Below are positions 1 to 7,419 of a DNA stretch of 27,091 nucleotides, piece after piece. The translations under genes and the position numbers were made by a program. Numbering within the stretch: the first letter of the stretch is position 1; the number at the start of each line of letters is the position of its first letter. Source of the stretch: a virus (taxonomy: Duplodnaviria > Caudoviricetes); the IMG/VR virus record IMGVR_UViG_3300048591_000337, positions 1 to 27,091 of that record. One strand, written 5' to 3'. The notes below the pieces were generated by a model. That model saw only the letters and a list, made by a program, of their open reading frames with translations. It was not told the DNA's origin and made no database searches.

Positions 1-197
1 TCCTTGATGGCTACCATCATGCCCTGTGCTTCATCTCTGATAACCTCGTCGCCCGAACGCTGCGTGACTGCGGAAGCCTTGTCCGCTTGCCGGGCATCCT
101 CGCCCGAACAAGCGGATGAAGCAGAATAGGGGCACTCATGCCTTTGGTAGTCTGTGTCCCAGCTAACTCCACATTTTCTGCAATAATCGCTATTCAT
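1..197 (-). CDS. Cassette hypothetical protein, partial (duplicate of 1563-1838, H to Y change); 3' end outside window
   Basis: Same sequence as 1642-1838; begins MNSDYCRKCGVSWDTDYQRHECPYSASSACSG. Confidence 0.65.
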   Translation of the reverse strand, partial: MNSDYCRKCGVSWDTDYQRHECPYSASSACSGEDARQADKASAVTQRSGDEVIRDEAQGMMVAIK

Positions 198-228
198 AAT
201 CCCCTCTCTGCTTATCACGCAGCGTTAT
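1..228 (+). repeat. Direct repeat copy A (matches 1642-1869; duplicated cassette, left end outside window)
   Basis: Identical to 1642-1869 except for one substitution (128 A vs 1769 G). Identity ends at GCGTTAT. Confidence 0.97.
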
Positions 229-230
229 GC
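103..230 (+). repeat. attC-like recombination site 1 (copy of site 5)
   Basis: R'' CCCGAAC 103-109. Arm GCGGATGAAGCAGA pairs with TCTGCTTATCACGC, with an extra G in the left arm. R' GTTATGC 224-230. Confidence 0.8.
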
Positions 231-233
231 CGA

Positions 234-554
234 TCATGTATCCAGCAAAAACTGCGTAGCTTTTCTGACGACCGCTGCTAGTGCTGCCTTGTCCTTATTG
301 TCAAATAAATCGAACAGCAGAGTGTCTATCGCTTGGTGAACATGCAGAGTACCGTTTCGACCTGCCCGCAACCACTCGACGTAACTTTGGTACGAATCAA
401 TCCGATCGCCGTTCCGAATTGCCCTCGCCAACTCAATTTCGTTGGTGACCTCAAGCATCGTCCTAGCGTGCTCTCTCAACTCATAAAGTGACGGCATAAC
501 AACGCGATGCAACGGAGCGGACGTATCCACGGCATCGACAGGTTTTTCATTCAT
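234..554 (-). CDS. Cassette hypothetical protein (106 aa, MNEKPVDAV...)
   Basis: 3' part of ORF 234..830. ATG at 554 is preceded by AAAGGAAA and lies in the loop of attC site 2. The ORF fills the cassette. Confidence 0.7.
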   Translation of the reverse strand: MNEKPVDAVDTSAPLHRVVMPSLYELREHARTMLEVTNEIELARAIRNGDRIDSYQSYVEWLRAGRNGTLHVHQAIDTLLFDLFDNKDKAALAAVVRKATQFLLDT

Positions 555-618
555 GTACGTTTTCCTTTGATTTATCGACACGTTGTAAATGTCCGCCCGC
601 TGATCGCGAGCGTTCGTC
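494..618 (+). repeat. attC-like recombination site 2
   Basis: R'' GCATAAC 494-500. CGCGAT(G)CAACGGAGCGGAC pairs with GTCCGCCCGCTGATCGCG. R' GTTCGTC 612-618. Confidence 0.85.
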
Positions 619-622
619 GTAC

Positions 623-967
623 CTAATCCGCCCGCATCGTCCTGATTCCAGGCTCTTGCGGAAAGAACCTTCCAGCGTCTTGCTTTGCCATGAATCGCAC
701 GAATACTTGATCTCTGAATCTTTCGTGCATCCGATGCAATGCTAACGCCCACATCATCAAACCACGTTTGCGGTTTCCGCCTGCCAAGCCGATGTATCGC
801 TTGGCAATTGGCGTATTTTGCTCTCGCCACACTGTGCCGTCTGGCATCAATGCCATGCCGAGGTAATGCACTCGCACACCGCTATCGTGCTGCCACGTAG
901 AGCATCCGACGAATCTCCAACCAGGACCGGGACGACGAACAATTCCTTCAATTGCCGCCTCGCTCAT
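623..967 (-). CDS. Cassette hypothetical protein (114 aa)
   Basis: ORF from the track. It overlaps the end of the upstream ORF and stops just before the R' box at 612-618. Confidence 0.65.
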   Translation of the reverse strand: MSEAAIEGIVRRPGPGWRFVGCSTWQHDSGVRVHYLGMALMPDGTVWREQNTPIAKRYIGLAGGNRKRGLMMWALALHRMHERFRDQVFVRFMAKQDAGRFFPQEPGIRTMRAD

Positions 968-1154
968 CTTCGATAAACTCCTGATACTTAACTCGAAACA
1001 TTGAAACGTGTGCTCGGTGCTTACAATCGAAACACTTTGCTCGCGTCAACTCGACTTGCTTGGCTCGATACGATCGACACTTCGGGCAACGCAATTCCCA
1101 ATCGGACGACGAACAATCGGATGCACCGAAGTCCTCGATCTTCTCTTTTGACAT
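948..1154 (-). CDS. Cassette small zinc-ribbon-like protein (68 aa)
   Basis: CPKC...CFDC motifs. ATG at 1154 lies in the loop of attC site 3, after a purine-rich GAGAAAGAGAG. Confidence 0.6.
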   Translation of the reverse strand: MSKEKIEDFGASDCSSSDWELRCPKCRSYRAKQVELTRAKCFDCKHRAHVSMFRVKYQEFIEDERGGN

Positions 1155-1197
1155 ACCAATCTCTCTTTCTCGGACTCGGTGATCCGTGACGTTAGGT
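1108..1197 (+). repeat. attC-like recombination site 3
   Basis: R'' GACGAAC 1108-1114. CGGAT(G)CACCGAAGTCC pairs with GGACTCGGTGATCCG. R' GTTAGGT 1191-1197. Confidence 0.85.
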
Positions 1198-1431
1198 GGA
1201 CGAAACGCCCATCGTTGAATCCAACGCAGAACGCAAACCATGAATGGAATCGCGAAGCTGTTCATTCACCTCAATCAAGTAATCAATTGCCGCTAGTGAC
1301 TGACCTGGTGGGACATCGATTTCTCGACGCAGACACTCTCGTATGTCATTGACAACTCCGGGGACATCAACCGCGCGTTGCCGCATTGCCTCTATCATCA
1401 CGCCATAACCGCTCGGAAACTTAACTGACAT
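1192..1431 (-). CDS. Cassette hypothetical protein (about 79 aa; alternative GTG start at 1440)
   Basis: The ORF fills the cassette exactly. An SD-like AGGTGG overlaps the R'' box, and the TAA stop lies within the R' box GTTAGGT. Confidence 0.7.
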   Translation of the reverse strand: MSVKFPSGYGVMIEAMRQRAVDVPGVVNDIRECLRREIDVPPGQSLAAIDYLIEVNEQLRDSIHGLRSALDSTMGVSST

Positions 1432-1438
1432 AATCGCC

Positions 1439-1527
1439 ACCTAACAAACCAATGCAACCGAGCGGCCATCGATCGCTTTTGAAGTGGTAAATCAACCGTG
1501 GCCGCCGGTTGATTGGTAGCGTTCTGG
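1439..1527 (+). repeat. attC-like recombination site 4
   Basis: R'' ACCTAAC 1439-1445. CCAAT(G)CAACCGAGCGGCCA pairs with TGGCCGCCGGTTGATTGG. R' GTTCTGG 1521-1527. Confidence 0.88.
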
Positions 1528-1562
1528 CGACGAATGGAATTTCGCGTCCATCGCTCATGCAA

Positions 1563-1838
1563 TTATTCTTGACGAGTTATCTCGATTCGCACTTTGAAAC
1601 CTTCGATTAAAAAGTCTTTGTATGCCCCATGTATCCGAAGTTCCTTGATGGCTACCATCATGCCCTGTGCTTCATCTCTGATAACCTCGTCGCCCGAACG
1701 CTGCGTGACTGCGGAAGCCTTGTCCGCTTGCCGGGCATCCTCGCCCGAACAAGCGGATGAAGCAGAATGGGGGCACTCATGCCTTTGGTAGTCTGTGTCC
1801 CAGCTAACTCCACATTTTCTGCAATAATCGCTATTCAT
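1563..1838 (-). CDS. Cassette hypothetical protein (91 aa, N-terminal CxxC...HxC)
   Basis: Part of ORF 1563..1859. ATG at 1838 follows GAGAGGGG inside attC site 5. Confidence 0.65.
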   Translation of the reverse strand: MNSDYCRKCGVSWDTDYQRHECPHSASSACSGEDARQADKASAVTQRSGDEVIRDEAQGMMVAIKELRIHGAYKDFLIEGFKVRIEITRQE

Positions 1839-1869
1839 AATCCCCTCTCTGCTTATCACGCAGCGTTAT
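1642..1869 (+). repeat. Direct repeat copy B (matches 1-228)
   Basis: Direct comparison of the two segments at offset 1641. Confidence 0.97.
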
Positions 1870-1871
1870 CG
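1744..1871 (+). repeat. attC-like recombination site 5
   Basis: R'' CCCGAAC 1744-1750. GCGGAT(G)AAGCAGAATGGGG pairs with CCCCTCTCTGCTTATCACGC. R' GTTATCG 1865-1871. Confidence 0.8.
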
Positions 1872-2132
1872 GGACGACGCCATCTGAATCGCCCGATCAA
1901 CTGCGTCTCTTGCTTCCTTCAAATCTTGCATTGCGTCACCCTTACCGCGAATGCCACTACACAACAGTTTCTTGATGGCGTGTTGCCTCGCTGGACACGT
2001 CACCGCAAAGGCTTCGAGGATCGCGTAAACATCGGCCCGGCCATCAACCAGACAACGCATCTCACGAAGATACTTCGAGCCGCTTTGGTTGAATCGTTGA
2101 ACAACATCATCTTTGGTTAGGTTTGTAGACAT
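1866..2132 (-). CDS. Conserved phage protein, DUF3310-like (88 aa)
   Basis: Motif DVYAILEAF...HAIKKLLCSGIRGKGDAMQDLKEA resembles a common phage family from recall. GGAGGTGA precedes ATG 2132. Confidence 0.65.
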   Translation of the reverse strand: MSTNLTKDDVVQRFNQSGSKYLREMRCLVDGRADVYAILEAFAVTCPARQHAIKKLLCSGIRGKGDAMQDLKEARDAVDRAIQMASSR

Positions 2133-2263
2133 TTTCGCCCGAATCACCTCCGGGCTAATGTCCTGCGTCCCTGGCTTCCTCTCTTTGCTTTCATGTAAAG
2201 CAACGGCCTGTTGATTCAGCCTCTTCAAAGTTTCCAGTCCGTGTACCAATTTCGTTCTCCTAT

Positions 2264-2584
2264 TCAGTTTGTGTAACCAGGAGGCGTCCAATCCGTCGCC
2301 ACCTTTCCTTGCTCGATATAACTCAACTCCGGCGCCTTCATGCCCCATCTGGAAGCAGCCTCGCGCAGACCAAGACCAAGTGTGGTCACTCGGTACTTGC
2401 GGAAAGTTAGCCCACGTTCATATTGCTCAACCTGTTGGCTTGAAATCCACCCAACTCCTTCACAGGTAGTACACTCAAGCTCTCTTATTGGTGGTCCACT
2501 CATTCCAGGTGCATAGGACACAATGACAATGGAAGACTCGCCAGCCCCGTTACATTCCGGGCATTTTGTCTTGTCGCTACTCAT
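2264..2584 (-). CDS. DnaJ-type zinc finger (CxxCxGxG x2) fused to an XRE-like HTH
   Basis: CPECNGAG and CTTCEGVG, followed by LGLREAASRWGMKAPELSYIEQG. GGAG RBS precedes ATG 2584. Confidence 0.75.
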   Translation of the reverse strand: MSSDKTKCPECNGAGESSIVIVSYAPGMSGPPIRELECTTCEGVGWISSQQVEQYERGLTFRKYRVTTLGLGLREAASRWGMKAPELSYIEQGKVATDWTPPGYTN

Positions 2585-2614
2585 TCGCAACTCTCCAATA
2601 ATCCCAGTTAGTCC

Positions 2615-2694
2615 AAAAACCCTGCCCGCAGTGTTCATCGTGAACTCCAACAGCCACCTCGAAAAAGTGTTAGTGTTGTTCACCTGCGGGCAGG
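2615..2694 (-). terminator. Long hairpin followed by a U tract (terminator or processing stem)
   Basis: Perfect 11-bp inverted repeat CCTGCCCGCAG (2621-2631 / 2684-2694), inner GTGAAC/GTTCAC stem, then GTTTTT on the minus strand. Confidence 0.5.
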
Positions 2695-2697
2695 CAG

Positions 2698-2778
2698 AGC
2701 CCCATCGCGGATTCGAACCGCTCCAGTGCCTGGCCGTCCTTGGACGCTCCTTGCACCACTCAACCTTGAGCATGGGGC
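2698..2778 (-). ncRNA. tRNA-like RNA with no canonical anticodon loop
   Basis: Acceptor GCCCCAT/ATGGGGC, D-like hairpin CTCAAGGTTGAG, T arm GCGG-TTCGAAT-CCGC. The central arm GGTGC...GCACT encloses CGTCCAAGGACG. Confidence 0.65.
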
Positions 2779-2819
2779 TTAGGTGCCACACTCCCAGCAG
2801 TGGCCGCTGACCGTACTTT

Positions 2820-3140
2820 TTAAGTCCTTAAACGGCTTTGACTTTTTTCTTCGCCTTCCTTCGCTGCCACATCAGCCGCAATCCCTGGCTGATTCGCTTC
2901 TGTCGTTCCTTCGCTGTCAGTTTCTTGCGTTTCTTCATCGTCATCTTCAACCAATGGTTCGTATGTCCAGTCTCCGTCTTGACACGCCAACCTTCCCTGT
3001 ATTGTGTCGCACCAATAAAACACCATCACATGGCCAAACGCACAGTCGATATCCCTCGCTTCGTTCAGTGCATCAATAACTTTGGCGATTGCCCGCAGCT
3101 CGTCTGCAGTGTGATACATTCCATAACGTTTCTTGGCCAT
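2820..3140 (-). CDS. Hypothetical protein with acidic C-terminus (106 aa)
   Basis: ORF with a GAGGA RBS, lying between tRNA-like elements. Confidence 0.7.
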   Translation of the reverse strand: MAKKRYGMYHTADELRAIAKVIDALNEARDIDCAFGHVMVFYWCDTIQGRLACQDGDWTYEPLVEDDDEETQETDSEGTTEANQPGIAADVAAKEGEEKSQSRLRT

Positions 3141-3161
3141 TTGGTTTCCTCTCTGTAAAAG

Positions 3162-3298
3162 CGGACCAGGCAGGAATCGAACCTGCGCCCCGGTTGGTGT
3201 CTCGCGTCAACCGGTTGTACTGCCGTTCGTGTTGAAACAAACCGAACCGTACTATCCAGGGGCGGTCAGCCCCCAGCTCTACCCTGAGCTACTGGTCC
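3162..3298 (-). tRNA. tRNA-like RNA, possible Val(GAC), with an approximately 70-nt variable-region insertion
   Basis: Acceptor GGACCAG/CTGGTCC, D arm TAGCTCAGGGTAGAGC, anticodon arm GGGGG-CTGACCG-CCCCT, T arm GCAGG-TTCGATT-CCTGC. Total 137 nt; no encoded CCA. Confidence 0.65.
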
Positions 3299-3437
3299 AA
3301 AATGCCCGTCTCTCCGAGCTGTCACGGTCTCCATGCTTCGCACCCACCGTTCGCTGCTGTCAGTCATGGCCCCGGCGACGATGTAAGCCATCGGTCTCGT
3401 CGCTCCACTTAACCTTGCGGTGATGGCTAGTGCTCAG

Positions 3438-3536
3438 TGACTCGGGCAGGATTCGCACCCGCTATTGGCTTCTGCACCGTCAGGAGAGCCACATCCCTGA
3501 TGCAGATATTGCGTGTTCCCACCACGCCGCCGAGTC
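3438..3536 (-). ncRNA. tRNA-like RNA with extended anticodon-position stem
   Basis: Acceptor GACTCGG/CCGAGTC, D-like GCGTG-GTGGGAA-CACGC, T-like GCGGG-TGCGAAT-CCTGC, central stem TCTGCA-TCAGG...CCTGA-CGG-TGCAGA. Confidence 0.6.
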
Positions 3537-3543
3537 AAAAAAA

Positions 3544-4275
3544 TCACTCCCAAACTTCAACTATTCTCCTTCCAATCCATTCTGCGACTTGCGGCACAAC
3601 TGCGTTGCCGAGTCCTCTAAGTCGGTCCACATAGGCGGAAATCCCTGAACGGCTTCGATGACCGCTATGCTCGGGTATGGCTGGCCATGATGCCTTGCCC
3701 ACCAATGTGTAAATGTTGTTTCTCGGTTGGCTTTCGGATGATCTTTGGTGGTTCCACCCTTCCATGCGTTGGCTGTCGGCGTTGGCATCGACACCGAGCA
3801 CAAACAATCGTTCTCGACGATGCCTAGCGCCAACGCAACACGCCCTAAATCGGAAGGGCAAGCAAGCGTAACCAAGCGACTCAAGGCCAGCTCGGAATCG
3901 AAACCAAGGCCAGGGAGCATCGACTCTGATGTGGCTTGGATTTTCTCTGACCACAATGCGAGGGCGAACCTCTTCAACAATTCGCAGGAACTCACCGCCA
4001 AGACTCTCTTTTTTGGATCGACCGGCACCCACTGCCGCGCTGTTAGCTTGGCATGGGTCTCCTCCACAGATAACGTCAACTCGCTCAAGGTTGTGTTTTC
4101 CGCACTGCTTAATGTCTCGTTCTCTATGAACGCTTGGCCAATGTTTTTCAAGCACTTTTGTTGCGTAGTCATCTATCTCCACCTGCCACTTGCAAACCAT
4201 CCCTGCCTGTTCAAAACCAAGATCAAATCCGCCGATTCCAGCAAATAAACTTCCAAACGTAATCACAGATTCCAT
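3544..4275 (-). CDS. DNA (cytosine-5)-methyltransferase
   Basis: Motif I SLFAGIGG, catalytic GGDPCQ, REN, RRERLF and C-terminal LGNAVVPQVAEWIG. Likely start is MESVITF at 4275. Confidence 0.93.
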   Translation of the reverse strand: MESVITFGSLFAGIGGFDLGFEQAGMVCKWQVEIDDYATKVLEKHWPSVHRERDIKQCGKHNLERVDVICGGDPCQANSAAVGAGRSKKESLGGEFLRIVEEVRPRIVVRENPSHIRVDAPWPWFRFRAGLESLGYACLPFRFRACCVGARHRRERLFVLGVDANADSQRMEGWNHQRSSESQPRNNIYTLVGKASWPAIPEHSGHRSRSGISAYVDRLRGLGNAVVPQVAEWIGRRIVEVWE

Positions 4276-4425
4276 CCTAAAAATTGCACCGCCCACTTTG
4301 CCGCCGATATGGTCACGGTGCTGAGAAGGAGCCTCACAATCACCTAGCGTCAACGGCTGCCTGTAAGTGATTGCTACATGAAAAAGCGCCCGAGGTTTGC
4401 CGCGCCGGGCTCGCGGTCGAAAGGT

Positions 4426-4590
4426 TCAATCAAACAATCCTGGCTGCCTGAGCACCGCGCCCAGGGCATCATCCACCTGCTTTTCGAGCCGCTTCGATTT
4501 CTCGAGCGCCGGCCCGCTGCGCGTTCGAAAATACTCTCGCTGAGCCGTTCGCATTTCCTGCACCAAACTAGCTAGTTGCTCTACAGTCAC
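4426..4590 (-). CDS. Small phage hypothetical protein (54 aa)
   Basis: GTG start overlaps the upstream TGA (GTGA). Helical MRTAQREYFRTR...LEKQVD; ends QPGLFD. Confidence 0.65.
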   Translation of the reverse strand: MTVEQLASLVQEMRTAQREYFRTRSGPALEKSKRLEKQVDDALGAVLRQPGLFD

Positions 4591-4823
4591 GCCAGCACCC
4601 CAGCGTCGTTTCGTTTCTTGCCTTTGGAAACGTCCTGCAGCCAAACCGACCTGGTATTGGCCTGGTAGTCCCGACCATCCCATTCCAGCAACTCACCATT
4701 CCGCCAGATGCAGAACTCACCCCAACCGATGATCGAGAACTGAATGTATCCCTCGTCAACGTCGGTGATTTGCACTCGATTGGCCCCGAGCCCCTGGAGA
4801 AGTCGGTTAAATTGCTCAATCAT
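4587..4823 (-). CDS. Hypothetical protein (78 aa)
   Basis: ORF tightly overlapping both neighbours. Confidence 0.6.
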   Translation of the reverse strand: MIEQFNRLLQGLGANRVQITDVDEGYIQFSIIGWGEFCIWRNGELLEWDGRDYQANTRSVWLQDVSKGKKRNDAGVLA

Positions 4824-5157
4824 CGCTTTGCCCCTCCAGCGCCAAAACCAAACTCATCACCACATCGTTGCCAGCAGATAGCGGAACATCGATGTACCAA
4901 TCCACATGGCCAGACGAACAGTGCTGTATCGTGATCCAGGGACAATGGTTGGACTCACCGATTACTTTCACCTTCCCCTTCCGGTAGGTCGGCCTGGTCG
5001 GTCGATCTGGCCTGCTGTCAGACTCGGAAGGCTTAAACCCAAGCCCCAACAGCAGCTCCCTGGCGCAGCTCACTGTGGCCGGTCTGGAGTCGCTACGCCG
5101 CTTGGGGCGTCCGCTGACATGGACGCCACCGCTTTTCTTTCGCTCCTTAACTCGCAC
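4816..5157 (-). CDS. Hypothetical protein (113 aa)
   Basis: ORF coupled to recT and to the downstream ORF. Confidence 0.55.
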   Translation of the reverse strand: MRVKERKKSGGVHVSGRPKRRSDSRPATVSCARELLLGLGFKPSESDSRPDRPTRPTYRKGKVKVIGESNHCPWITIQHCSSGHVDWYIDVPLSAGNDVVMSLVLALEGQSDD

Positions 5158-6058
5158 TGGGAGCCTCGCTGACTGGAGCCTCTGGCTCCTGCTCGGGATC
5201 TACTGAAGACGCAATCAGCCGCTCGGTCAGGTCATCCAGTCCCAGTCTCTTTGCAGTGCCCTGGATGACTTCAGCGCCGCCAAAAGAGTTCTCCGAGTCG
5301 ATCGACAGCGCCCGAACGCTTTCTACATCATCGATCACACACCAACCCCGCGATACCGCGTAGTGCATCGCTGTCTTCATGGATTGCTCAATCGGCCATT
5401 TGTGCCAAGGGTCAGACTCTCTAGCCCAGTCGTTAGCCAGAGCAAACCTATAGGCATCGGATTGATTTCTACGAAGCTCAATAACCGACTTTGGCACCCA
5501 GCCGCGAAAAGTCACAATGCCGCTTGTTCTGTCTTTTACCAAAACAACCACACCGCGCAGGTCGTCCATCGTCGCCGGTGGATTGTCGATGTCGCGAGAC
5601 TTGACTACAGCCTCGCCGCCATCGTCTACTCCAATATCGTCTTTGTAGGAAATCGGAATCGGTATCAAGGCTTGATCGCATCGCTTTGCCAGTGCAGCAA
5701 TACCGCGATGAGAAAGCTCATATCGAAGTATTGGTGGCTCACCCTTCCTAGCACGCCGAGGGATCGCGTAGGCAAGAGCGTTTCGAGTCGTTCCGACCAT
5801 AATTCCAGTCAACGCAGAAATTGCGACTACAGAACCGATACTTTCTTTTGTGCAGTTATAGAACTCGTCTGGTTTCTTGCTGCTAGCTGCTGCTGCTGAC
5901 AACGCGATCGAAACTCTTCCTATCGCGTCAGCCGCCCTCTCTTCTCCGACCCAGTCTGTTAGCAAGCTGGTCGCGATTGCAGTACATGTTGCCCGAAACT
6001 GCCTTGCTGGTGTCAATACTGGCTGCTTGTTGTCGCTGTTTGTTACTGCTGTACTCAT
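5147..6058 (-). CDS. recT: RecT-family single-strand annealing recombinase
   Basis: RecT-like motifs AYAIP...YELSHRGIAALAKR and SDPWHKWPIEQSMKTAM; lies next to a YqaJ exonuclease. Confidence 0.8.
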   Translation of the reverse strand: MSTAVTNSDNKQPVLTPARQFRATCTAIATSLLTDWVGEERAADAIGRVSIALSAAAASSKKPDEFYNCTKESIGSVVAISALTGIMVGTTRNALAYAIPRRARKGEPPILRYELSHRGIAALAKRCDQALIPIPISYKDDIGVDDGGEAVVKSRDIDNPPATMDDLRGVVVLVKDRTSGIVTFRGWVPKSVIELRRNQSDAYRFALANDWARESDPWHKWPIEQSMKTAMHYAVSRGWCVIDDVESVRALSIDSENSFGGAEVIQGTAKRLGLDDLTERLIASSVDPEQEPEAPVSEAPSAS

Positions 6059-6088
6059 AATGCCAATACCCTTCTGCTTAGATAAAAA

Positions 6089-6424
6089 CTAACCCTCTAA
6101 AGACGATCTAAACTCAATCAGTGCGGCAACGTGCAATTCAAGTGACTTTACTTGCCGCTTTAGCTCCTCGATCTGCTCCTGCAAGCACTCATTGCTCAGA
6201 CGCTTTTGGTATGTCTCAACCACCCGAGTAACTTCCATCTTGGCATCCTCGCAGACACCGACGATATTTCGGCGAGTCACCGGAAACTGAATCGCTTTGG
6301 AAAAATAAGAAATGGCCTCATCCCAATTTTTCAGCGGGCTTTCCAGTGCTGAAATGGCGTCCCGCAGTTCAAACGACTTCGCGCGACCCAAGACATTCTG
6401 CCGTGTTCCCCTGACACCACCCAT
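6089..6424 (-). CDS. Hypothetical protein with C-terminal coiled coil
   Basis: ATG overlaps the YqaJ stop (TAATG); LQEQIEELKRQVKSLE heptads. Confidence 0.65.
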   Translation of the reverse strand: MGGVRGTRQNVLGRAKSFELRDAISALESPLKNWDEAISYFSKAIQFPVTRRNIVGVCEDAKMEVTRVVETYQKRLSNECLQEQIEELKRQVKSLELHVAALIEFRSSLEG

Positions 6425-7419
6425 TATTTGCCCACCCTTCTTAAAACGCGAAACGTAGAACACTTCTCACACTCAAGCGCGATCTCTGGATGTCGCTCCC
6501 GCAGCAAATCCGCGTCGATCGACCTGCGCGACTGCTCCTTCCACGAATACCGCCCACCACCAGGCAGAGAGCCCCAGGTAGCCCCACCGATCGCCGCTTT
6601 CAGGCGGTTCTCGATGCCATCAATCTTGGCCTCGATCTGCTTTCGCTGGTCCTTCAGCTCCAGCAGCTCTCGGTCCAGATCGAAAAAGTCAACTGGCAAG
6701 CTCACTTCCTCGCCCGAGTCATGCGGGTAGATCAACCCAATGACAGCCTTCGTCGCCTCCGACTCATCGACCGGCGGCATTTCCTTTTTAAGCACGTAAA
6801 TCCAGAACCGAGCCAGCTTACTCAGCATGGCCTCGATAAATCGGTCGTTCCGCTCGATAAGCCTAATACTCAGCTCATCGCCACCAATCAATCCAACCAG
6901 GTAGCAATGACTCGCACCCGTAACCGCCATCTGAGTCTGGCACTGCACCATGTACTTCAAAGGTGGCTCGATGTCCTCATCCCAATCGCCGCGAAACCGA
7001 CCATTGACCGCTTTCAGCTCCACTGGGATGCAGCCATGTTCTGGGTGTCGGCACCACCTATCGAGAGTCGCAAACAGCCACTCATAGGTGTCACTGCGAT
7101 AGATCGTGAAGTCGCCTGGATCGACGGTCTCAAACCCCGTTTCCTCCTCGAACTCCATCGCGATATACGGCTCCAGCCGCTTGCCCCTGTTCATGCGTTT
7201 CAAAGTGGCCGCGTCAAACTCTTGCTTGGCCGCTCCGGTCTTCTCTGCCCAGACTGTGATCGGGCTGGTATTGGCGTAGCCAACACCGAAGATACTCGCC
7301 ACTTCGCTGGCACCGATGCCAGTCCTCCGAGTCTCCAGCCACTGCTCCCGAGTGTCATGGAACTCGGTTATCGATGTCCACCTGCTCTTTGTCTCGTACT
7401 TCTCCGCTGTCTCCGTCAT
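6424..7419 (-). CDS. YqaJ-like viral recombinase exonuclease
   Basis: WLETRRTGIGASE, GKRLEP, ATLD, VELK and YMVQCQTQM motifs. Confidence 0.93.
   Translation of the reverse strand: MTETAEKYETKSRWTSITEFHDTREQWLETRRTGIGASEVASIFGVGYANTSPITVWAEKTGAAKQEFDAATLKRMNRGKRLEPYIAMEFEEETGFETVDPGDFTIYRSDTYEWLFATLDRWCRHPEHGCIPVELKAVNGRFRGDWDEDIEPPLKYMVQCQTQMAVTGASHCYLVGLIGGDELSIRLIERNDRFIEAMLSKLARFWIYVLKKEMPPVDESEATKAVIGLIYPHDSGEEVSLPVDFFDLDRELLELKDQRKQIEAKIDGIENRLKAAIGGATWGSLPGGGRYSWKEQSRRSIDADLLRERHPEIALECEKCSTFRVLRRVGK

Follow-up and report, generated by a model that had tools for sequence, protein, structure and literature searches.

The window analysed here is the whole of a 27,091-base virus record (IMG/VR IMGVR_UViG_3300048591_000337; Duplodnaviria, Caudoviricetes), and the system in question is an array of integron cassettes with their recombination sites (attC), which lies at the downstream end of a run of minus-strand phage genes. 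These genes code for a terminase, portal, protease, major head protein, connector, tape measure, RecE-like and RecT-like proteins and a DNA methyltransferase. We found five attC sites in the window, with AAC to GTT cores at 107-226, 498-614, 1112-1193, 1443-1523 and 1748-1867, and six cassette open reading frames (ORFs), all six on the minus strand and co-directional with the phage operon, which agrees with an earlier sequence-only reading of this DNA in which every cassette ORF was put on the minus strand. The sixth of them, at 623-967, was absent from the list of that reading. The plus-strand ORFs within the cassettes are short, the longest being only 29-55 aa.

Regarding the polarity of the sites, AAC and GTT are present at 5/5 sites, although the flanks of the R boxes follow the Planctomycete pattern and not the strict RYYYAAC/GTTRRRY consensus. 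An extrahelical G is found in the left arm on the plus strand at 5/5 sites, and the minus strand folds more stably at all of them, by a margin of 0.8-4.3 kcal/mol. We trained a covariance model on 40 attC sites from Planctomycete genome contigs, after removal of L121 and one L141 site, both apparently start-bearing, of one duplicate each of L075 and L083 and of all the L010 sites (L numbers denote the compared stretches). It scored attC C (1108-1197) with 72.8 bits on the plus strand vs 13.2 on the minus strand, attC D (1439-1527) with 66.3 vs 12.7 bits, and attC B (504-607) with 17.9 bits on the plus strand. The model gave no match to the two 120-nt sites, attC A and attC E, because of their long loops, and thus its strand preference is available for three of the five sites. 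R'' is complementary to the first bases of its own cassette at 9/10 positions in B, C, D and E. This complementarity cannot assign a hairpin to a gene, whereas breakpoints can. A 228-nt direct repeat (1-228 and 1642-1869), which is the duplicated cassette E, ends just beyond the right-hand GTT and has one difference between its copies (128/1769). Furthermore, in five full-length pairs of cassettes shared between different neighbourhoods, 23-25 of the 25 bases inside the right crossover are kept, vs 7-11 of the 25 outside it. The crossover at the G|TT of R' is read from these breakpoints, that is, from comparative evidence, and therefore the plus strand is the top strand and the hairpin moves with the gene to its left.

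The sequence-only reading had also taken the plus strand as the top strand, and the extra base of the left arm, the host-trained model, the stability of the minus strand and the right-hand G|TT breakpoints all bear it out. If the polarity had been misread, the minus strand would be the top strand and the ORFs would run canonically toward their attC. Actually, seen from the gene, stops at or near an R box do look canonical, and the complementarity of the R boxes alone fits both models. Nevertheless, the extra base, the strand stability and the model all give the plus strand. A gene that starts in a hairpin is accompanied by that hairpin both in the duplication and in the cassettes shared between phages, and in L141 both forward and inverted genes lie between attC sites that agree in polarity. 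We therefore hold a misread polarity to be extremely improbable and the inversion of the cassette genes very likely to be real.

Regarding the starts, the sequence-only reading had placed those of all the cassette genes inside their own attC. This stood for the ATG codons at 197, 554, 1154 and 1838, which lie between the L boxes of an attC, and the attC-derived peptides SAPLHRVVMP, GASDCSS and ASSACSG that it named are present in the ORF translations. It did not stand for ORF D (1192-1431), whose start is outside the site, although the AGGTGG ahead of 1431 does overlap R'' as had been said, or for ORF C1 (623-967), which starts at a decayed remnant. Since the starts at 197 and 1838 belong to copies of one cassette, the window holds three independent predicted attC starts. 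The predicted pairing of the Shine-Dalgarno (SD) sequences with the anti-SD sequence is -6.7 kcal/mol for A and E, -4.0 for B, -3.3 for C2, -6.6 for C1 and -6.9 for D. The features are collected in Table 1.

Table 1. Features of the cassette array and of the adjoining phage gene, in positions of the window. Crossovers are given as the G|TT of R'.
Feature	Position	Strand	Remarks
attC A	103..230	+	crossover G224|TT; recognised by anatomy and folding
attC B	494..618	+	crossover G612|TT; first bases of cassette B complementary to R''
attC C	1108..1197	+	crossover G1191|TT
attC D	1439..1527	+	host-like, without internal start; crossover G1521|TT
attC E	1744..1871	+	last site of the array; crossover G1865|TT
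R'' and spacer remnant of the lost C1 attC	928..950	+	repeat D12; intact attC there in relatives
ORF A	1..197	-	second copy of gene E, cut by the contig end; predicted start in attC A; reaches its stop in L171
ORF B	234..554	-	106 aa; predicted start in attC B; cassette B = 225-612
ORF C1	623..967	-	114 aa; widespread small phage protein family; own attC decayed
ORF C2	948..1154	-	68 aa, Cys-rich; predicted start in attC C, weak SD; cassette C = 613-1191
ORF D	1192..1431	-	79 aa; starts just outside R'', SD overlaps R''; cassette D = 1192-1521
ORF E	1563..1838	-	91 aa; ~30 N-terminal residues (CxxC, HxC) from attC E; cassette E = 1522-1865
51-nt in-frame module in gene E	1690..1750 (second copy 49-109)	-	flanked by 10-nt direct repeats of the R box
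Upstream phage gene (phrog_2452)	1866..2348	-	stop TAA within R' of the last attC

The array continues beyond the window. G001, a second record of this phage, has direct terminal repeats, and two stretches of it cover the array: L170 has the same sequence as window 1642-6838, and L171, at the opposite end of G001, runs past the left end of the window and adds 8 attC sites of the same polarity, with 46-78 bits in the covariance model. The total array has 13 cassettes and 15 ORFs, and 15/15 ORFs are inverted, whereas all 13 attC sites have one polarity, that of the crossover. An ordinary cassette has its ORF running toward its own attC and ending near R'', and in a cassette inserted by its top strand the attC is inverted together with the gene; the array has neither layout. 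Predicted starts lie inside the attC in 8/13 cassettes and within ~25 nt outside R'' in 5/13. The array terminates at a G|TT without hairpin (L171 3815), followed by RusA-like and replication genes, and this attI-like end resembles both a loose end in run X3 (at 1521) and the site next to intI, the integron integrase gene, in L015. Neither a protein query nor the model TIGR02249 found an intI in G001, whereas the positive control, G002, gave 279.9 bits. Judged on their sequence, the sites are attC sites, the array is a cluster of attC sites lacking integron integrases (CALIN), with 13 sites and no intI, and a complete integron is not present in this phage. With regard to a Pc promoter for the top strand, a sigma-70 promoter scan gave no match in window 1-4500 and two in L171, below the shuffle mean, thus nothing above chance. 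The Rfam search gave no family across the cassette array, and no DNA match to the array was found among 50,697 annotated phage records.

We rejected the idea that the 228-nt repeat is an assembly artefact, since one base and the first bases are not the same in the two copies, and the variant protein is on a 43,035-bp contig. This contig, with the variant E protein of the left copy, is 1,641 bp longer than G001, and the 91-aa protein P0004 carries the single residue change of the left copy (ORF A). G001 does not have cassettes B-D, which may be due to excision or to collapse at the repeat. Another fused structure is the in-frame fusion gene at L171 607-1014, whose residues 1-53 match a cassette of L024 and residues 53-135 a cassette of L033, and which apparently arose by loss of an attC.

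In order to know how general this layout is, we made two pattern scans of viral contigs, which gave 10 and 57 loci, and used the second pattern in genome contigs, with 99 loci, most of them without any attC. Some sites escaped the pattern-based site detector, two of them in L171, and it detected none in the stretches of phages TJE1 and P12002L, which were inspected by eye. Among the non-redundant cassettes with an R match of at least 6, each represented by its longest ORF, this ORF was inverted in 61/75 viral cassettes vs 14/35 from genome contigs. Five of the 14 forward viral cassettes came from L010, which is a provirus record, and 7 of the 14 inverted cassettes of genome contigs came from L112 and L144, both of them with phage-like flanks. 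The distance from the stop to the crossover was 0 nt (19 cassettes) or 9-11 nt (28), together 47/61; in cassette D, the first three bases, read on the other strand, are the stop TAA of its ORF. PHROG families matched 15/74 inverted ORFs vs 1/65 forward ones, and several matches begin at the end of the attC-coded head. The only forward ORF with a PHROG match in a phage array was L011 4583-4975 (phrog_585), which converges on a short inverted ORF.

The counts of attC starts exclude L112 and L144 from both sets and take L010 as host; opposite-strand shadows and cut or duplicate matches are also excluded. An SD with an ATG inside the attC opens at least 40 codons at 59/137 phage sites vs 2/46 host sites, and both of these host sites belong to phage-type cassettes. 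A start inside or just outside the attC was found at 122/137 phage sites vs 10/46 host sites. Counted per codon, the ATGs with an SD are in an open frame in 55/58 cases vs 0.39 expected, and those without an SD in 19/77. The attC-coded heads use nearly only two reading frames (32, 22 and 1 cases). The inverted layout is therefore supported, on these comparisons, as typical of phage arrays and not of host arrays. Four viral records have an IntI above the cut-off, and in them intI opposes the attC top strand and so lies on the strand of the inverted genes; three of the four were chosen since they had already been seen with IntI, and so this is not a frequency. A search with the IntI of L001 matched only its own contig. 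In L001 the first cassette behind attI and intI (4353-4983, ~630 bp) has no clear ORF on either strand.

The host cassettes are mostly forward and longer than those of phage arrays, and this bears on the idea of a static relic, left from a single capture of a host array fragment and no longer rearranged by any integrase. The phage record has no intI, the attC has been lost in cassettes C and 7, and the crossover at the left E copy is mutated, all of which would be expected of a relic. Nevertheless, the R''/R' pairs match 7/7 in 7/8 L171 cassettes, a near-exact duplicate of E lies four cassettes away, and cassettes recur with other neighbours in other phages. Moreover, since host arrays are mostly forward, capture alone would not give 15 inverted ORFs, and we consider a static relic improbable.

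Gene C1 differs from its counterpart in L001 by 10 synonymous and 3 non-synonymous changes (ratio 0.09), which indicates that it is under purifying selection in the minus frame; for other shared inverted genes the ratios were 0.07-0.35. The 21 aligned C1 homologues are conserved from IVRRPG, which is the sequence of R'', and the next in-frame start of the window gene is only at codon 31. An intact attC lies at the position of the C1 head in L001, L141, L175, L176, L182 and contigs of runs X1 and X3 (runs X1-X3 hold small shares only, and they serve as evidence on junctions, not on habitat). The heads themselves differ: L001 has one, L141 another and L175/L176/L182 a third, with a chimeric one in L177 and two more in runs X1 and X3, all of them joined at R'', and the window has the remnant. 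Four distant relatives of C1 (39-51% identity) are in ordinary operons without attC and start with MK[LH]RPGPGW behind their own SD; the lack of the N-terminal segment in homologues outside arrays, a check proposed with the sequence-only reading, is thus supported. The family has 256 representatives, and among 168 proteins examined 150 have the motif, 62/150 with heads of at most 8 residues. Many distant relatives among P0033-P0178 have longer heads ending in LVM, LVL or VVI, which may be attC-coded heads of other host types.

On the host side, C1 (91%) is present in L141, a short contig from a Planctomycetota bin; the genome of this bin has two IntI above the cut-off. In L141, C1 and a second start-bearing cassette are inverted and have forward genes on either side (947-1841). 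Such inverted cassettes may be silent behind a host Pc promoter and expressed from a phage transcript, as the sequence-only reading had suggested. Unrelated genes, in turn, can have attC bodies that are 95-100% alike, with the junction precisely at the AAC of R''. The earlier idea of the attC as a portable translation start is therefore retained in part: the same gene bodies do have different attC heads at R'', but such a start is likely for only about half of the cassettes.

Regarding the other proteins of the window, ORF B has three homologues that are conserved from VVMPS onward and have different heads; searches of viral or metagenome contigs found no relative of it. Pieces of ORF C2 (981-1070) match contigs in runs X1 and X3. 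In gene E, the 51-nt module codes for 20 residues that are invariant in 8/8 aligned E proteins, whereas their heads and tails diverge. The module resembles a collapsed inverted attC E and may be the footprint of an insertion at R''. Five window cassette proteins had no PHROG or Pfam match above the cut-off, and the Atlas search gave no usable match for ORF B and only leads below 0.9 for ORF D, with no function for either. These meagre matches would suit a reading in which the cassettes are non-coding or have plus-strand genes, the minus-strand ORFs being their shadows. However, the purifying selection on the minus frame of C1, the 256 representatives of its family, the short plus-strand ORFs and the excess of family matches among inverted ORFs argue against shadows, which we regard as very improbable.

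The flank of the array on the side of the phage genes is also informative about the cassettes. The stop of the adjoining upstream phage gene lies inside the R' of the last attC in two phages (window 1866-1868 and L001 3027-3029). An R''-like remnant at 2130-2143, within the phrog_2452 gene (repeat D2), suggests that this gene is possibly a former cassette. Further upstream, window 3162-3298 on the minus strand has a tRNA match of 45 bits with a ~66-nt insertion after the anticodon arm, and another tRNA-like stretch was spotted by eye at ~3440-3535. The ORF of the DNA methyltransferase (3544-4353) and a 203-aa ORF (3561-4172) overlap in different frames of the same minus strand.

Clusters of attC sites in phages have already been published, and what appears to be new is the inverted genes with the attC as predicted start. 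Qi et al. 2023 (PMC9892861) reported CALINs in phage genomes, likewise with several attC sites in phages without intI, and found that IntI1 recombined 5/6 phage attC sites with preference for the bottom strand; the accessible portions of that paper give no account of ORFs inverted with respect to attC or of starts inside attC. Phage TJE1 is forward at its first attC site (by eye). In Polaribacter phage P12002L (L173 29237-30060), a methyltransferase gene looks inverted; it is bounded on one side by a G|TT end and on the other by the published attC1, and 10 nt separate its stop from the crossover. This gene is likely an inverted cassette in a cultured phage, by the look of its sequence; in the portions of PMC9892861 available, the attC sites of P12002L are reported only as 'divergent'. 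A full-text literature search, with most subscription papers outside its reach, gave no description of the layout with inverted cassettes and attC starts. Further background is in the parts consulted of PMC7923331, PMC10661359 and bioRxiv 10.1101/2022.09.11.507474.

Four known systems come close to this array in one respect or another. The sedentary chromosomal integrons of Planctomycetota have the same attC type, since the 40-site host model scores 10/13 array sites at 46-78 bits and some phage and host attC bodies are 95-96% alike, but they differ in the mostly forward and longer cassettes and in having an SD and ATG in the attC at only 2/46 sites. In top-strand-inserted cassettes (Nivina et al. 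2016, PMC5027507, in the sections seen) the gene likewise faces the Pc side, and their crossover at R'' is the step that we propose below for the exchange of heads; however, there the gene and its attC are inverted together, whereas here the attC has normal polarity and the gene alone is inverted. In class 1 integrons, according to the text available of PMC8876359, ORF-11 of attI1 likewise gives an SD and a start that aid cassette translation from within a recombination site, but its place is the top strand of attI and it acts for the first cassette, whereas the start predicted here is in the attC itself, on the bottom strand, and moves with the cassette. Finally, the reverse or inverted-integrase integrons of Treponema (PMC4909258 and PMC4889954, in the passages available) have intI and the cassette genes on one strand, like the four intI-bearing phage records. 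In Treponema it is intI that is turned to follow the attC sites; here it is the genes, and intI keeps its usual direction, opposite to the attC top strand.

The best explanation, and one that we consider probable, is a phage array of Planctomycete-type attC sites in which every gene is inverted and likely read from the transcript of the phage itself. For about half of the cassettes, the ribosome-binding site, start codon and first 9-30 residues are all predicted to come from the attC. Host IntI would act in trans on the attC bottom strand, and the phage transcript would read this same strand. New cassettes would enter at the attI-like end, which would be the far end of the transcript; as transcription would run from the window to that end, the newest cassette would be read last. 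The attC bottom strands are purine-rich (PMC5027507, in the sections seen), and because of this an SD and an ATG would be easily gained in an attC. Ordinary phage genes would have become cassettes by the joining of an attC at a GTT near their 5' end, and R'' would have been the place of later exchanges of heads, for which a rare excision on the top strand, between two attC sites, would be the simplest route. Such an excision would cut at R'', so that one gene would keep the hairpin of its neighbour and the R''/R' pairs would stay complementary, and the released circle could re-enter normally. As the heads are nearly confined to two frames, swaps would have to match the frame or silence the gene.

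Several observations weigh against this explanation. Within the window, the left E copy has ATT instead of GTT at its left crossover, the SD of C2 (before 1154) is weak at -3.3 kcal/mol, the SD of E (before 1838) is paired in a predicted mRNA stem and not in a loop, and ORF B has an alternative ATG without SD at codon 20, inside R''. As proteins, B, C2 and D appear to have little or no independent support beyond close homologues. Only 8 of the 13 cassettes of the array start inside the attC, and the share of 59/137 phage sites with SD and ATG may be raised by the viral search pattern, which was drawn from start-bearing sites; moreover, the sites share descent, so that P values for these comparisons are too strong. 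Host arrays are not purely forward, as 7/28 cassettes are inverted after removal of L112 and L144. The attC-coded heads have too few changes for a selection test. Junctions at R'' are found in host arrays too, and so the junction alone is no proof of top-strand swapping; moreover, top strands recombine ~1000-fold less often (PMC5371416 and PMC5027507, in the parts available). L177 has a chimeric attC whose left arm is that of L175 and whose right arm is different, a sign that crossovers also take place within the loop. The rarity of top-strand recombination and this chimera make homologous recombination a live rival.

Accordingly, the array could be real and inverted while its heads are incidental, that is, chance starts on a purine-rich strand, exchanged by homologous recombination or acquired by repeated independent capture and not by top-strand events of IntI. 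The RecE-like and RecT-like genes of the window, the chimeric attC of L177 and the weak conservation of the heads are in keeping with this, and the bottom-strand loops of host sites are purine-rich too, with a share of 0.52 vs 0.59 in phage sites. However, the AAC of R'' is the exact position of most junctions, where the partners share too little sequence for an exchange driven by homology, and 55/58 ATGs with an SD are in an open frame. We consider incidental heads less likely than not.

Returning to a head that matters for translation, a broader reading, which we put forward only tentatively, is that of a mirror-image integron. Phages would make cassettes of their operon genes by means of an attC joined at a GTT close to the 5' end, the attC would be an interchangeable head in two frames, top-strand swaps would switch genes on or off or renew their N-termini, and hosts would store the same cassettes silently. 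If this is true, the birth of cassettes would be visible here with the non-cassette ancestors in hand.

The strand choice of attC is held to have the purpose of orienting cassette genes to the Pc promoter. The arrays described here, as a whole class, keep the polarity of recombination but turn the genes, and they appear to reuse the attC as a translation start. The origin of cassettes is a long-standing open question. 'Cassette genesis' is the name used for it in the available text of PMC5371416, and the C1 family, which comprises both attC-free relatives in ordinary operons and cassette forms whose several heads join at R'', would offer a testable route to it. A role in counter-defence is suggested by the cargo of related arrays, where DNA methyltransferases are found along with one Mom-like and one Lar-like protein. 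P12002L, a cultured phage apparently with one inverted cassette, is a possible bench model. Thus, phage and host would share one cassette pool, in which the genes of each side would be antisense for the other.

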